Below the pieces are notes generated by a model that saw nothing but the letters and a program-made list of their open reading frames with translations, ran no database searches and was not told where the DNA came from. From the IMG/VR virus record IMGVR_UViG_3300032373_000002, positions 1 through 64,000 of that record: 64,000 nucleotides of DNA, one strand, 5' to 3'. Below, piece by piece: positions 46,515-63,208 of this stretch (its first letter is position 1; the number at the start of each line of letters is the position of its first letter). This DNA comes from a virus. The translations under genes and the position numbers were made by a program.

Positions 46515-46519
46515 TTTCT

Positions 46520-46594
46520 GCGTCGTAGGGAAGGTTCCCCGGTCGGTCTCCAAAACCGATGTCTGTCAGCAGAGTTCGATACTCTCGCGGCGTG
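46520..46594 (+). tRNA. tRNA-Trp(CCA), atypical D arm
   Basis: TCGGT-CTCCAAA-ACCGA; GTTCGATA T loop; GU-rich acceptor. Confidence 0.75.
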
Positions 46595-47351: not shown

Positions 47352-47491
47352 GGCGAGGTGGGCAAAAGGAAAAGCCACTGGTTCAAGGCACCAGAGATTA
47401 GCATCTCTCAGCTGCGCAACTCGCTCTCCTAACCAGAGAGCCCTACGCATCAGCCTACAAGCATTTGCAGGTTCGAGTCCTGCCCTCGCCA
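47352..47491 (+). ncRNA. tRNA-like RNA C (72-nt variable-arm domain; loop TCAAGGC)
   Basis: GGCGAGG/CCTCGCC-A; GGC/GCC D stem; CTGGT/ACCAG; GCAGG-TTCGAGT-CCTGC. Confidence 0.8.
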
Positions 47492-50215: not shown

Positions 50216-50695
50216 ATGAACCGAGAAAAGAAGTTGCGGAAATTCGAGGAGGACTTGCTCCTCTGGGCGGCGAACCAACCCAGCGACGGGATAGAGATCC
50301 AATACCTTCGCCCCAACCGCCTCAACCCGGACTTCCCCGTCGAGGCTTCCGCCAAGTGGCTGGACCGACTGCCCGAAGGGCCCCTGAAGGCCCAGAAGGC
50401 GCTCAGAAAGACCCAAGAGGACTACCTGGCCCTGGGGCGTAAGGGGTGCTCCTCCGATAACCTGGACTGGGTTCGGCTGGTAGCCGAACTGCGGGGGATG
50501 CACTGGGACTGCCCAACCCTCGGTGTCTGGGTAGACTTCCAGCCGCCCTCCGACGAGGGCATGAAAGACAAGATCCTCCTGGTTTCCCTGGACTGGCGGT
50601 GGTGGGGCATCGATGACCGCTTCGGCCACCGTCGGCGGAAGGTGTTCACGTACAAGACCGTGGCCGAGTACTCCGGCCCGCTCCCCAAGGTGTAG
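50216..50695 (+). CDS. hypothetical protein
   Basis: GGAGG RBS. Confidence 0.65.
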   Translation: MNREKKLRKFEEDLLLWAANQPSDGIEIQYLRPNRLNPDFPVEASAKWLDRLPEGPLKAQKALRKTQEDYLALGRKGCSSDNLDWVRLVAELRGMHWDCPTLGVWVDFQPPSDEGMKDKILLVSLDWRWWGIDDRFGHRRRKVFTYKTVAEYSGPLPKV

Positions 50696-50696
50696 C

Positions 50697-51137
50697 ATGG
50701 AAGATTTCAAGCGGATGAGGGTAGCCGAACTGCGGGCTGAGCTGGACGAACACGGAGTCCAGTACAAGGCATCGACGCGCAAGCCGGAACTCCTCCGGCT
50801 CCTGGAGTTAGCCATCAAGGCCAAGAAGAGGGTGCACGCCCTCCGCATCCTGGATGAGATCGAGTACTGGTTCGTAAAGATGGCACCCCCGCCGCAGCCC
50901 GACATCATCGCGGAAGGGCTCCAGGACAAGACCGAGGGGTGGACATTCAACGTCCACACCAAGGAAGTCAAGCGGTACTGGACCACCCACTGGAATCACG
51001 GCAAGGTCGGGCGGGTGGAGGGTTGGTCGCAGGGCGGCGTGGACCTCTTCCGCAAGAAAGAAGACGCACATCGGCGGATGCGGTACGAGTACCTCCGGCG
51101 GATGATCAAGGGATTGGAGGGCCTGGACGCCCCGTAA
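50697..51137 (+). CDS. SAP/HeH (Rho-N-like) nucleic-acid-binding domain protein
   Basis: MRVAELRAELDEHGV......RKPELLRLL. Confidence 0.65.
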   Translation: MEDFKRMRVAELRAELDEHGVQYKASTRKPELLRLLELAIKAKKRVHALRILDEIEYWFVKMAPPPQPDIIAEGLQDKTEGWTFNVHTKEVKRYWTTHWNHGKVGRVEGWSQGGVDLFRKKEDAHRRMRYEYLRRMIKGLEGLDAP

Positions 51138-51227: not shown

Positions 51228-51311
51228 GCGGTGGTGGCGGAATCGGTCTACGCAGCAGATTCAAAATCTGCCGACCTTCGGGTCTTGAGGGTTCGAATCC
51301 CTCTCACCGCA
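51228..51311 (+). tRNA. tRNA-Leu(CAA)
   Basis: Canonical class II; GCAGA-TTCAAAA-TCTGC. Confidence 0.95.
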
Positions 51312-51504
51312 CTCAACCCCTGGAGCCTACGATGCACCCAAGCCGAAGCCGATACTGCACGGCCAAGCACCCCCAGACCGGGGAGCGGTGCCGCCGGAAG
51401 TGGATGCACTGGGGTCAGCATCGGACCCACGCCGACGCCAAGGGCATCGTCCTGAAGTGGTTCGGCTCGACCAACAACTGAGACTTGGAGCTCCGGTAAC
51501 AACA

Positions 51505-51969: not shown

Positions 51970-52067
51970 GTACCAGGTAGCTCAACGGGAGAGTATCGCG
52001 GGGCCTACGAACTCCGGAGGTTCAGCGCCTAATGCGAAGGTTGCAGGTTCGAGTCCTGCCTTGGTAC
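51970..52067 (+). ncRNA. tRNA-like RNA E (G-1:C73 His-type end, extended anticodon arm)
   Basis: G-TACCAGG/CTTGGTA-C; TAGCTCAACGGGAGAG D arm; TCGCG/TGCGA stem enclosing nested hairpins. Confidence 0.75.
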
Positions 52068-52075
52068 CTCAAATC

Positions 52076-52159
52076 CTGAGGGTGGAGAAAATGTCATACT
52101 CGGCGGGTTGGGCACTCGCTGGCCAAGCGGTCGTGTAGGTTCGAATCCTACCCCTCAGG
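52076..52159 (+). tRNA. class-II tRNA with GGG anticodon (identity uncertain)
   Basis: CTGAGGG/CCCTCAG-G; GCGGG-TTGGGCA-CTCGC; TGGCC/GGTCG variable arm; GTAGG/CCTAC. Confidence 0.75.
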
Positions 52160-52259
52160 TCGTCCCAGGCCTCCTAACGCCTCAGAGACCCTTGCAGTAG
52201 TCCGGCAAGGAGAGAGGCAGCAGGGGGTGCTGGCACCCTTCCGAGAGGTACATCTGAGT

Positions 52260-52336
52260 CGGGGAATAGCGCAGTCTGGTAGCGCAGCGGCTTTGGGAGC
52301 CGAAGGTCGTAGGTTCGAATCCTGCTTCCCCGACCA
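52260..52336 (+). tRNA. tRNA-Pro(TGG), CCA encoded
   Basis: Canonical; C1:G72; CTTTGGGAG around the anticodon. Confidence 0.95.
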
Positions 52337-53509: not shown

Positions 53510-53558
53510 GTTCAGTAGTTATTGCCCCTATTTCCAGCCCTGGTTGGAGGTAGGGGCA

Positions 53559-53855
53559 ATGCTTTTCTTGAAAGGGTTCCTGATAGGATCCACGTCGGTC
53601 GGTGCGGGCACGTGGCGGATGCTGTCGGTTCATGAAGGCCGCCCGCTCAACACAGTCTTGGCGTCGAGCCTTATCTCCGTCACCTACATCTTCGGGGTCA
53701 ACTTCGTCGTCAAGGAGCAGTGGGCGGGCTACATCGGATTCAGCGTGGGGGCAGCCTTGGCGACCGGATTGTTGGCACACAAGAGGAAGAACCGGCCCAC
53801 GGTAATCCTCCTTGAGGAGAAATGCGATGCGCGACACCCTGAGAAGGAATCTTGA
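53559..53855 (+). CDS. small membrane protein (about 3 TM)
   Basis: Hydrophobic segments; purine-rich RBS. Confidence 0.6.
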   Translation: MLFLKGFLIGSTSVGAGTWRMLSVHEGRPLNTVLASSLISVTYIFGVNFVVKEQWAGYIGFSVGAALATGLLAHKRKNRPTVILLEEKCDARHPEKES

Positions 53856-61755: not shown

Positions 61756-61797
61756 GGGTTCAGAGGTAAAGTGGGCATCGACCAAGAAGGAGACCTA

Positions 61798-62598
61798 ATG
61801 GGTGCAGGAAGGTTCAGCCTCAGCGGCTCCAGCGTGAGCGGCATCAGCTCCAGCATCGTCTGGGAGAACAGGCGAATCTGCTTTGATGTGGGCAACCCGT
61901 TCGAGGCGCTGAAGTGCGGCACAGTGCTCATCACCCACGGCCACCTGGACCACGCCGGTGGCCTGCCTCAGCACTACAACATCCGGAAGATGCTGGGGCA
62001 GCGCACCACCTACGTCCTCCCCCGCCAGCTGTTGCAGGAGACCGTAGGGGTGCTGAAGGGCTGGGCTGGGATCCAAGAGGAGGAGTACACCAGCCCCATC
62101 TTCGTGCCGCTCGACATCGGGCAAGAGCACTGCCTGGGAGGCAAGCTCTGGGTCAAGCCCTTCTACACCGATCACCGCATCGACTCCCAAGGCTACCTGA
62201 TCGTGGAGCGGCGCAAATCCCTCAAAGCCGAGTACAGAGGGCTGCCGGGAATGGGCCTGGGCAAGCTACGGCGAGGAGGGGTGGAGATCGACCAAGTGAT
62301 CGACATCCCCATGATCGCGTACACCGGGGACACCCGCGCCACCATCTTCGAGCGCGGAGAGGAATGGCTCAACGCCGAGGTCGTCATCACCGAGTGTACC
62401 TTCCAGGGAGAGTCGATCAGCCCCAAACAGGCTGCTGCGCGGGGACACACCCACCTCAGCCAACTCGTCGAGCGAGAGGCGGCGTTTCGACACTGCGGTA
62501 AGTTGGTCTTGACCCACCGTTCGAAGCGGTACAGCCTGAAGGACATGAACGAGGCCCTTCAGGCCACCCCCCTGGCTGACAAGGCCGTGTTTTTTTGA
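61798..62598 (+). CDS. rnz: tRNase Z (short, TM-type; metallo-beta-lactamase fold)
   Basis: ITHGHLDHAGG; TDH.IDSQGY; short exosite RKSLKAEYRGLPG..LG.LR..G; AYTGDT; TECTF; GHTH; LTH.SKRY. Confidence 0.85.
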   Translation: MGAGRFSLSGSSVSGISSSIVWENRRICFDVGNPFEALKCGTVLITHGHLDHAGGLPQHYNIRKMLGQRTTYVLPRQLLQETVGVLKGWAGIQEEEYTSPIFVPLDIGQEHCLGGKLWVKPFYTDHRIDSQGYLIVERRKSLKAEYRGLPGMGLGKLRRGGVEIDQVIDIPMIAYTGDTRATIFERGEEWLNAEVVITECTFQGESISPKQAAARGHTHLSQLVEREAAFRHCGKLVLTHRSKRYSLKDMNEALQATPLADKAVFF

Positions 62599-62605
62599 GG
62601 CTGGT

Positions 62606-63208
62606 ATGATCGACAAGAAGTCCATGACCGTCGAGGGTTGCGAACCCCTGAGCTACTGCCCGGACCTGTTCGCGGACCAGGCAGACCGGCTGCTGGAGCT
62701 GGTTCGCCCCCAGCTCCTCAGCAGGACCGAAGTCCGGCAGGAGTGCTTCCTGAGCCCGACTCCCCGAGACTACACCTACGGTGTGGGGCGGGGGGCGAGG
62801 ACCTACTCCAGCACCCCGATGTGCCGCGAGCTTCAGGAGTTCTTAAGCTCCGTGAGCATGGCGGTCAGCGTGTTCTGCGGCTACGGCATCGGGGCGAAGC
62901 GGTTCAATGCCGTCTTCGTGAATCAGTACCTGAACAAACGTCAGCACCTGGGGTGGCACGCCGACGACTCTCCGGAACAGGACCCCCACATGCCCATCGC
63001 CGTGGTCAGCTTTGGGCAGGCCCGTGAGATCTGGTGGCGCCCCAACGGCCAGAAGGGGGAGGTCCCTCCCTCTCAGCGCCAGATGCTGGAGCACGGAAGC
63101 CTGTTCGTGATGTCGCCGGGGTTCCAGGACCTGTACCAGCACCGGATCCCAAAGGGGGACCGAGAGATGGGGGAACGTCTCAGCTTCACGTTCCGTTGTT
63201 TCCGCTGA
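62606..63208 (+). CDS. AlkB-family 2OG/Fe(II) dioxygenase
   Basis: FNAVFVNQY....LGWHADD...IAVVSFG..R...LEHGSLFVM..GFQ..YQHRIPK......RLSFTFR. Confidence 0.9.
   Translation: MIDKKSMTVEGCEPLSYCPDLFADQADRLLELVRPQLLSRTEVRQECFLSPTPRDYTYGVGRGARTYSSTPMCRELQEFLSSVSMAVSVFCGYGIGAKRFNAVFVNQYLNKRQHLGWHADDSPEQDPHMPIAVVSFGQAREIWWRPNGQKGEVPPSQRQMLEHGSLFVMSPGFQDLYQHRIPKGDREMGERLSFTFRCFR

Follow-up and report, generated by a model that had tools for sequence, protein, structure and literature searches.

A tRNA-shaped gene with a leucine-type body and a proline anticodon in the tRNA cluster of a very large phage

Introduction

Transfer RNA (tRNA) genes carried by phages are usually read as codon supply or as spares against host defences. 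The gene considered here lies at positions 52075–52161 on the plus strand of a 64,000-nucleotide stretch of virus DNA (the window), which is the first 64 kb of the 115,448-base IMG/VR virus record IMGVR_UViG_3300032373_000002. It is tRNA-shaped, it is labelled tRNA-Pro(GGG) by ARAGORN, and it is referred to below as the candidate. Its body, its ends and its anticodon point to three different amino acids; the fold has been kept, and the marks of accurate decoding are gone. The body is of leucine type, neither serine nor proline type, and the fold of its lineage has been under selection. As a tentative explanation, the candidate is regarded as a non-decoding, poorly charged tRNA look-alike that would offer some tRNA-binding protein an anticodon arm and an end resembling those of tRNA-Pro(GGG). 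Such a look-alike is considered more likely than a tRNA that swaps one amino acid for another.

Anatomy and reality of the gene

A preliminary description of this DNA had listed a class-II body with a long variable arm, a proline GGG anticodon in the loop TT-GGG-CA, C37 together with the discriminator G73, a C1:G72 pair with a possible eighth pair to C52075, and a D loop without GG. All of these features are present in the sequence and in the ARAGORN drawing, which includes the eighth pair. The whole gene covers 87 nucleotides (nt), including C-1 and two trailing bases. The 5' strand of the acceptor stem, CTGAGGG (52076–52082), begins with C1 and pairs with 52152–52158, while the 3' strand, CCCTCAG, ends with G72 and is followed by G73 (52152–52159 together). 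The discriminator, G52159, is able to pair with C52075, which gives the eighth acceptor pair. No CCA is encoded, and TCG stands after G73. U8 and G9, the D arm and G26 occupy 52083–52102 according to ARAGORN and to the alignment with the leucine covariance model introduced below. The D arm has a stem of 3 base pairs (bp), GAG/CTC, and an 11-nt loop, AAAATGTCATA, which holds a single G. Aligned in that model to the tRNA-Leu consensus GGAAUuGGuAGAC, the loop keeps A14, A15, one G and A20a, and the second G is replaced by U.

The anticodon arm (52103–52119) consists of the stem GCGGG/CTCGC, with one G-U pair, and the loop UUGGGCA (52108–52114), in which U33 precedes the anticodon GGG (52110–52112) and C37 (52113) and A38 follow it. 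The variable region of 15 nt (52120–52134) is of leucine type and is divided as 1+4+4+4+2 nt, U GGCC AAGC GGUC GU, with U48 as its last base. Its 4-bp stem (GGCC-AAGC-GGUC) leads through a CGUG junction typical of tRNA-Leu into the T stem, and the layout matches that of the tRNA-Leu(CAA) gene at 51228–51312. The T arm, GTAGG-TTCGAAT-CCTAC (52135–52151), is canonical; the neighbouring tRNA-Pro(UGG) has the same arm except for 1 nt. The Levitt pair is A15-U48.

A chance call by ARAGORN is rejected, as randomising the 115-kb record 40 times yielded only 3 calls, a rate of 0.075 per genome length. Against the leucine covariance model, the candidate scores 61.1 bits (E 1e-14) over 52076–52160 with no non-standard pair. 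The general tRNA model RF00005 (gathering threshold 29 bits), on the other hand, did not list it in a 12.5-kb search, either at the gathering threshold or at E<=10, and it is not among the 13 matches of that model in the whole record. Its best Rfam match is tRNA-Sec (RF01852), at 19.4 bits and E 7.3 against a gathering score of 47. The candidate is thus a genuine tRNA-shaped gene, yet one far from the tRNA consensus.

A leucine-type body

Isotype covariance models were built from 28 phage tRNA-Leu and 23 phage tRNA-Pro. With the leucine model, the 61.1 bits of the candidate exceed the scores of twelve tRNA-Ser (28–56 bits, highest 56.1) and of tRNA-Tyr (40–51 bits, highest 50.6). True tRNA-Leu score higher still (75.4–88 bits): the tRNA-Leu(CAA) of the window reaches 79.8 bits, class-II tRNA-Leu from independent loci 75–85 bits (lowest 75.4), and the training tRNA-Leu in locus L002 (labels beginning with L denote fetched loci) 81–88 bits. 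With the proline model, the neighbouring tRNA-Pro(UGG) obtains 88.8 bits and the candidate 29.7 bits, which places it tenth and under every canonical tRNA in the cluster. A model made from the candidate only was also run on 235 loci obtained by pattern scans of IMG/VR, as well as on 30 huge-phage records in full. It gives 119 bits to the candidate itself, and its next best matches are all tRNA-Leu (47–61 bits), with 43.8 bits for the best tRNA-Ser and 42.6 bits for the best tRNA-Tyr. In the 30 huge-phage records the top score is 60.7 bits, and the top-scoring matches are tRNA-Leu according to ARAGORN. Because the leucine-model score lies above all serine and tyrosine tRNAs, the candidate's own model finds tRNA-Leu best, and the proline-model score is low, the body is assigned to the leucine type. 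The body had previously been described as Leu/Ser-type; the leucine half of this description stands on the three model tests, whereas the serine half is not supported, since G1-C72 and G2-C71 are missing and the variable stem has only 4 bp.

The candidate equals tRNA-Leu(CAA) in length and layout, position for position, and has the class-II leucine architecture of a 3-bp D stem, an 11-nt D loop, a 15-nt variable region and A15-U48. Across 29 phage tRNA-Leu, 21 columns show conservation of 90% or more, and the candidate agrees with the consensus in 16 of them. The five departing columns are A35 (now G), A73 (now G), the base after the discriminator, and two that belong to one T-stem pair, in which G-C has become A-T with both sides changed. 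The change at position 35, which is invariably A in 28 phage tRNA-Leu and is G (52111) in the candidate, is the one that turns a leucine anticodon into GGG.

The stems have been maintained during this divergence. Compared with tRNA-Leu(CAA), 21 of 48 stem positions differ (44%), with 9 pairs changed on both sides and 3 on one side, and all 24–25 stem pairs of the candidate are nevertheless standard. When an equal number of stem positions was mutated at random, all pairs were kept in 0 of 200,000 trials, and the mean number of intact pairs was 11.5. Since all stems are intact despite 44% stem divergence, the fold of the candidate's lineage has been under selection. The candidate is therefore not an old pseudogene, and a recent loss of function is compatible with the stem result.

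Identity elements kept and lost

The comparisons drew on 538 distinct phage tRNAs and on counts for 24 tRNA-Pro, 41 tRNA-Leu and 34 tRNA-Ser of phages. Only the GGG anticodon (G35, G36) and the C1:G72 pair are proline-like in the candidate. The pair is found in 21 of the 24 tRNA-Pro, whereas its frequency in other phage tRNAs is about 5%, with 2 cases among the 41 tRNA-Leu. G3 is conserved in phage tRNA-Pro, and the candidate has G3:C70; a phage tRNA-Pro(CGG) at L101:684–760 has the acceptor stem CTGAGAG/CTCTCAG, almost the candidate's CTGAGGG. At the discriminator position, the 24 tRNA-Pro uniformly carry A73, as do 38 of 41 tRNA-Leu, and neither group contains a single G73. G73 occurs in 28 of 34 tRNA-Ser, and the earlier remark that it is typical of tRNA-Ser is thus borne out. 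The same applies to the remark that C37, G73 and the long arm are atypical of tRNA-Pro, most of which carry G37 and a minority A37. C37 is found in 1 of the 538 phage tRNAs and a D region without GG in 14, and none of the 538 has both. The first pair is G1:C72 in 31 of the 34 tRNA-Ser, where the candidate has C1:G72 followed by U2:A71.

The rules for charging are those of an identity review (PMC9976931). The leucyl-tRNA synthetase (LeuRS) of E. coli recognises A73 and the tertiary elements A15-U48, G18G19 and A20a, among which A73 and G18G19 are the main determinants; it has no need of the anticodon or the long arm, and G73 acts on it as an antideterminant (PMC9976931). For bacterial tRNA-Ser, the identity lies in the variable arm together with G73 and pairs of the acceptor stem; in most bacteria its G1-C72 and G2-C71 show absolute conservation, and seryl-tRNA synthetase (SerRS), like LeuRS, ignores the anticodon (PMC9976931). 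The identity of bacterial tRNA-Pro resides in G72, G35, G36, A73, G15-C48 and G37, with A73 strictly conserved (PMC9976931). Compared with the leucine set, the candidate lacks A73, A35 and G18G19. From the proline set it has G35, G36 and C1:G72, and it lacks A73, G37, the class-I body and G15-C48. From the serine set it has the long arm and G73, with a 4-bp stem and a leucine-type junction, and it lacks G1-C72/G2-C71 and a serine-like body. Judged by its sequence, the candidate carries a part of each of the three identity sets and all of none. These rules, which come from model organisms and may not be those of the host, lower the odds of efficient charging.

Look-alike, dead gene or decoder

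In the preferred explanation, a leucine-type class-II scaffold has gained a GGG anticodon and a proline-type first pair, C1:G72. It has also lost A73, which is needed by both LeuRS and prolyl-tRNA synthetase (ProRS), one guanine of the D-loop pair that holds the tRNA elbow together, and purine 37, a stabiliser of decoding. The RNA would be cut from the transcript of the tRNA operon in the same way as its neighbours and would fold into a tRNA-like L shape. It would be charged poorly or not at all and would take no part in the bulk decoding of CCC and CCU. We infer for it a binding partner and a purpose, namely that it may be a decoy or ligand for a tRNA-binding protein, be it a nuclease with which the host cuts tRNAs, a modification enzyme or a partner encoded by the phage.

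Several lines of evidence point to such a look-alike. The anomalies at position 73, at position 37 and in the D-loop GG would be very unlikely together in a working decoder and are unremarkable in a non-decoding RNA. The intact stems and the compensated switch to C1:G72 speak for a structured, maintained RNA and not for debris. Moreover, the same phage already has other tRNA-shaped RNAs that are unable to decode, one of which (51971–52068) lies directly upstream, and this supports the look-alike reading. Additional support comes from the failure of RF00005 to list the candidate and from the codons, since CCC and CCU are abundant and mean proline, so that the phage would pay a price for a decoder with the wrong amino acid. 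It has been proposed that phage tRNAs escape host anticodon nucleases through altered anticodon loops (PMC10264068), an idea that could fit a decoy as well as a decoder.

The codon counts were taken from a crude set of 101 long open reading frames with 31,486 codons. CCC is the top proline codon of the phage, with 39% of proline codons, and CCU accounts for 17% (about 56% together); the two make up 1,206 of the 31,486 codons (about 3.8%). When the AlkB-like oxygenase encoded at the end of the tRNA region was compared with 119 homologues, CCC/CCT codons were found at residues that are 91%, 95% and 100% proline, and an apparent CCC at a conserved His column is a one-residue alignment shift. As the codons sit at conserved prolines of this protein, genome-wide recoding of CCC/CCU is rejected. 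The phage thus reads CCC/CCU as proline, and an efficient serine- or leucine-inserting tRNA would therefore damage its own proteins.

Other observations weigh against a look-alike. The anticodon loop of the candidate is flawless, with 7 nt and U33 on a stem of 5 bp, and a pure protein-binding mimic would have no obvious need for it. The GGG anticodon complements the tRNA-Pro(UGG) next to it, and CCC tops the proline codons. C1:G72, G35 and G36 are real ProRS determinants. The arm with the word CCTACAAGC, which marks the phage's other look-alikes, is missing from the candidate. The proposal names no specific partner protein or target, and the identity rules on which it leans derive from E. coli plus a small number of further models and may not be those of the host. 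Furthermore, no orthologue that could speak for present-day selection on the odd loops was retrieved.

Among the alternatives, the one that survives best is a recently inactivated gene, which is nonetheless unlikely. Here the candidate would be, for example, a copy of tRNA-Leu(GAG) that became toxic through A35G, was then disarmed by changes at three positions (73, 37 and 19) and now evolves without function. The leucine anticodon GAG is one transition from GGG, and the functional departures from the leucine consensus are A35, A73 and C74, the other two forming the single compensated T-stem pair. A dead gene would also agree with the failure to find an orthologue in any collection searched, and with the lack of the CTCAA trailer that stands after the discriminator in several neighbours, where the candidate has TCG instead. 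Additionally, the predicted cloverleaf (-31.5 kcal/mol) is weaker than an alternative extended fold (-37.2 kcal/mol), unlike that of tRNA-Leu(CAA), whose cloverleaf is its minimum-energy fold. However, the candidate shows zero stem defects, and the change from G1:C72 to C1:G72 is a compensated double change towards the proline type that decay does not predict. The chance that, under random mutation, about five functional loop sites would be hit and none of the 48 paired positions disrupted is, as a rough estimate, about 4%.

It is improbable that the candidate is a working tRNA-Pro(GGG) on a leucine-type scaffold, which ProRS would charge through G35, G36 and G72 and which would decode CCC/CCU beside tRNA-Pro(UGG). 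The GGG anticodon, U33 and the canonical loop size agree with such a role, as do the C1:G72 pair seen in most phage tRNA-Pro, the acceptor stem close to that of tRNA-Pro(CGG) and the abundance of CCC and CCU. The tRNA-Pro(UGG) gene, moreover, lies 98 nt downstream and has a nearly identical T arm. Leucine-type scaffolds with other ends and another anticodon do exist in phages, for instance with asparagine ends at L260:2769–2851 (62.1 bits). These other chimeras, however, keep purine 37, the D-loop GG and the cognate discriminator, and the candidate keeps none of the three. G73 stands where all phage tRNA-Pro have A73, which is strictly conserved in bacteria (PMC9976931); C37 replaces the usual G37, and the Levitt pair is A15-U48 and not G15-C48. 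The proline-model score of 29.7 bits also speaks against this role, and canonical class-I tRNA-Pro(GGG) genes are available in comparable phages (L201, L260).

The weakest alternative is the one favoured in the preliminary description, a missense and/or +1-frameshift-prone tRNA that SerRS or LeuRS would charge, that would insert serine or leucine at CCC/CCU and that would slip at CCC-N in the absence of m1G37. Its chances are slim, and equally slim are those of a natural, virus-encoded mistranslating or frameshifting tRNA that acts on the sense codons CCC/CCU during infection. In its favour are the long variable arm combined with G73, the indifference of SerRS and LeuRS to the anticodon, the mistranslation caused in yeast by tRNA-Ser with proline anticodons, and the lack of C2-G71, a pair by which E. 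coli tRNA-Leu wards off SerRS (PMC9976931). In E. coli, allo-tRNAs that combine a long arm with G73/U73 place serine at sense codons (PMC5389517), and C37 rules out the m1G37 modification. Nevertheless, the body is of leucine and not of serine type, G1-C72/G2-C71 are missing, and the variable stem has only 4 bp. The earlier suggestion of leucine charging is doubtful, because A73 and G18G19 are missing and G73 is a LeuRS antideterminant (PMC9976931). Efficient missense at CCC/CCU would harm the phage itself, as these codons are about 56% of its proline codons and about 3.8% of all its codons and stand at conserved prolines of the AlkB-like protein; there is no recoding, and efficient substitution would damage phage proteins.

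Search for relatives

No orthologue of the candidate was found in GenBank phages, IMG/VR, a metagenome collection or prokaryote genomes by sequence, loop-pattern, 3'-half and covariance-model searches, and near-identical records may be absent from these collections. Megablast and blastn against GenBank phages matched only the neighbouring tRNA-Pro(UGG). An exact scan of IMG/VR with the anticodon arm gave one chance match with no tRNA there. The pattern UUGGGCA followed by 18–35 nt and a T loop gave 100 matches, mostly an unrelated repeated element and several D-loop matches; in only one was the loop closed by a stem, and this one is dissimilar to the candidate. A metagenome scan with the D loop and the anticodon loop and free stems returned 34 matches, approximately the number expected by chance, none of them tRNA-like. 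A scan with the 3' half gave 0 matches in IMG/VR and prokaryote genomes, and a search for relatives by way of the flanking proteins found none. As a separate observation, about 50 IMG/VR contigs, for example at L007:6095–6140 (minus strand) and L010:10738–10783 (minus strand), carry a near-identical tRNA-like element of about 100 nt with the sequence TTGGGCA...tcttagac...GGTTCGAATCC, which ends in ...taccgaccacacca and receives no tRNA call from ARAGORN.

Genomic neighbourhood

The 115,448-base record has 62% G+C and an estimated completeness of about 22% (CheckV), and because of this low completeness it is taken as a fragment of a very large, high-GC phage. With Pfam and PHROGs, almost nothing was obtained for the large proteins of this phage, and no placement in a known phage group was reached. 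ARAGORN called 12 tRNA genes on the plus strand between 46.4 and 57.9 kb, one of which is the candidate. It thus shares its strand with 11 other calls and starts 7 nt past the preceding tRNA-like gene. No terminator-like hairpin is present on the plus strand between the candidate and the neighbouring tRNA genes, and the first strong one downstream, in a hairpin scan, is at 53520–53561 (plus strand). The candidate is very probably co-transcribed with its tRNA neighbours. Downstream, a canonical class-I tRNA-Pro(UGG) with C1:G72, A73, G37 and an encoded CCA occupies 52260–52336 (plus strand). Upstream, the canonical tRNA-Leu(CAA) lies on the same strand.

The tRNA-like RNA directly upstream, labelled 'E', covers 51971–52074 on the plus strand together with its CTCAAAT trailer, which is the candidate's entire 5' leader. 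The gene proper (51971–52068) was called by ARAGORN and has normal acceptor, D and T arms, with 44.9 bits for RF00005. Its anticodon region contains an insertion with CCTACGAAC, which resembles the CCTACAAGC module of this phage, and ARAGORN reads the region as a 4-base anticodon or a 3-nt intron. Exact copies of CCTACAAGC are found at 47454 and 47778 of the window. Two further unusual calls were noted in this phage. A 'tRNA-Trp(CCA)' of ARAGORN at 46519–46593 of the window is missed by the Rfam tRNA model and scores 28.4 bits with the tRNA-Sec model. In the same phage (G000 68399–68487), an 89-nt 'tRNA-Phe(GAA)' combines a long hairpin in the variable region with exactly the T arm of the candidate.

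Several protein genes of the tRNA region were also noted. Just upstream of tRNA-Leu(CAA), 50613–51137 encodes a small protein in which a HeH/LEM DNA-binding motif was recognised (PF12949, E 3e-09). Its sole database match is itself, present on two contigs, of which one measures 410,989 bases. Where the tRNA region ends, 61771–62598 encodes a tRNase-Z-like protein of the metallo-beta-lactamase fold (PF12706, E 2e-06). Directly after it, 62606–63208 encodes the AlkB-like 2OG-Fe(II) oxygenase (PF13532, E 7e-21), in which the WHADD iron motif is intact. Homologues of this oxygenase at about 50% identity number in the hundreds, several of which bear the name alkylated-DNA repair dioxygenase. By its position, the oxygenase may act on RNA or tRNA. 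Both the AlkB-like protein and the HeH protein are present on the 410,989-base contig too. Neither a class-II core domain of the ProRS/SerRS type nor TrmD was found in the 115-kb record, which represents about 22% of the genome.

Comparison with known systems

The candidate resembles class-II tRNA-Leu in its 7/5 acceptor/T arrangement, U8, 3-bp D stem, 11-nt D loop, A14 and A15-U48, in its 15-nt variable region with a 4-bp stem and CGUG junction, and in 16 of the 21 conserved columns. It differs from them in having G35, G73, C1:G72 instead of G1:C72, C37 and a single D-loop G. With tRNA-Pro(GGG) of the proL type, as in phages at L201:3965–4041 and L260:2874–2950, it shares GGG, C1:G72 and G3:C70, as well as the position beside another tRNA-Pro with a near-identical T arm. 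These tRNAs, in contrast, belong to class I and have a 5-nt variable loop, a 4-bp D stem, the D-loop GG, A73 and usually G37.

Allo-tRNAs (Mukai et al. 2017, PMC5389517), the nearest class that has been described, are similar in their long arm, G73/U73 and an anticodon that does not match the body. They have been proposed there as missense suppressors and/or regulatory non-coding RNAs, and some are located in phage tRNA clusters (PMC5389517). They are defined, however, by an 8/4 or 9/3 acceptor/T arrangement, whereas the candidate has 7/5 (8/5 if C-1:G73 forms) and a leucine-type D arm. Membership is rejected on the T stem of 5 bp (GTAGG/CCTAC), and the text sections consulted mention no allo-tRNA with a proline anticodon (PMC5389517). 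The 8/5 arrangement, which is a criterion for tRNA-Sec, is possible in the candidate. A tRNA-Sec is nevertheless rejected, since the D arm has 3 bp and an 11-nt loop and not 6 bp and 4 nt, the anticodon is GGG and not UCA, and RF01852 gives 19.4 bits against the required 47.

The tRNA-like Y RNAs (YrlA, RF02553) and the CCTACAAGC-arm look-alikes of this phage are, like the candidate, tRNA-shaped and not expected to decode. The candidate, however, has neither a Ro-binding helix nor the CCTACAAGC module and keeps a normal anticodon arm. Membership in the CCTACAAGC family is rejected, as the word has no match with up to 2 mismatches inside 52075–52161. The sole YrlA match nearby (18.8 bits, E 6.3) straddles two genes. 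The tRNA-Ser(CAG) of Candida is likewise a natural class-II tRNA with an anticodon that reads another amino acid's codon (PMC2246281). Its serine identity is complete, though, and the codon is reassigned or ambiguous genome-wide (PMC2246281), whereas the candidate has no complete identity set and CCC/CCU mean proline in its phage.

Phage chimeras on a leucine scaffold, such as the asparagine type at L260:2769–2851, are together with ordinary tRNA-Leu the nearest to the candidate in structure. They share with it a leucine-type D arm, a short variable hairpin and a non-leucine first pair, discriminator and anticodon, and their leucine-model scores are similar (62.1 against 61.1 bits). They differ in three features that the candidate lacks, namely purine 37, the GG of the D loop and a discriminator in agreement with the anticodon. 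No published description of this chimera group was found, and it is known here from fetched loci. The gene at L260:2769–2851 (minus strand; phage IMGVR_UViG_3300031088_000008) has asparagine ends (U1:A72, G73), the anticodon GUU and a leucine-type D arm, and an 86-nt tRNA-Lys(CUU) with an extra hairpin lies near it at L260:2559–2644 (minus strand). Another gene, at L002:1046–1128 (minus strand) of the huge phage IMGVR_UViG_3300025150_000004, is a near-complete tRNA-Leu with the loop CTTATAG, the anticodon UAU of which reads AUA (Ile). It has a leucine D arm with GG, A73 and A37, scores 74.7 bits with the leucine model and is flanked by two tRNA-Leu genes. This gene is a stronger candidate than 52075–52161 for leucine-for-isoleucine misreading or for an isoleucine tRNA on a leucine scaffold. 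In the fetched loci, some of which overlap or are near-identical, 23 ARAGORN calls of at least 82 nt have anticodons other than those of Leu, Ser and Tyr, including Asn, Ile-UAU, Cys, Thr, Gln, Lys and others.

Unusual anticodon loops are also found elsewhere among phage tRNAs. U37 is present in 13 of the 538 (for example L099:3825–3899, L101:838–915 and L183:973–1047). Most of these are tRNA-Asp(GUC), with the loop CUGUCUA in five and UUGUCUA in two (six loci), and tRNA-Glu(UUC) with CUUUCUA occurs at two loci. The U37 tRNAs may exemplify the anticodon-loop changes proposed to evade host nucleases (PMC10264068). In addition, the 361-kb phage IMGVR_UViG_3300028833_000001 has a 71-nt 'tRNA-Stop(UUA)' called by ARAGORN at L264:2984–3054, a possible UAA suppressor.

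Significance

Annotation pipelines will label such genes 'tRNA-Pro' by the anticodon alone, which would distort analyses of codon supply in phages. Should the candidate be charged, it would represent the first proline tRNA of class II or else a tRNA that mistranslates sense codons in nature. If it is a look-alike, it would widen the repertoire of non-decoding tRNA mimics in huge phages and would suggest the existence of a factor that recognises tRNA-Pro(GGG).

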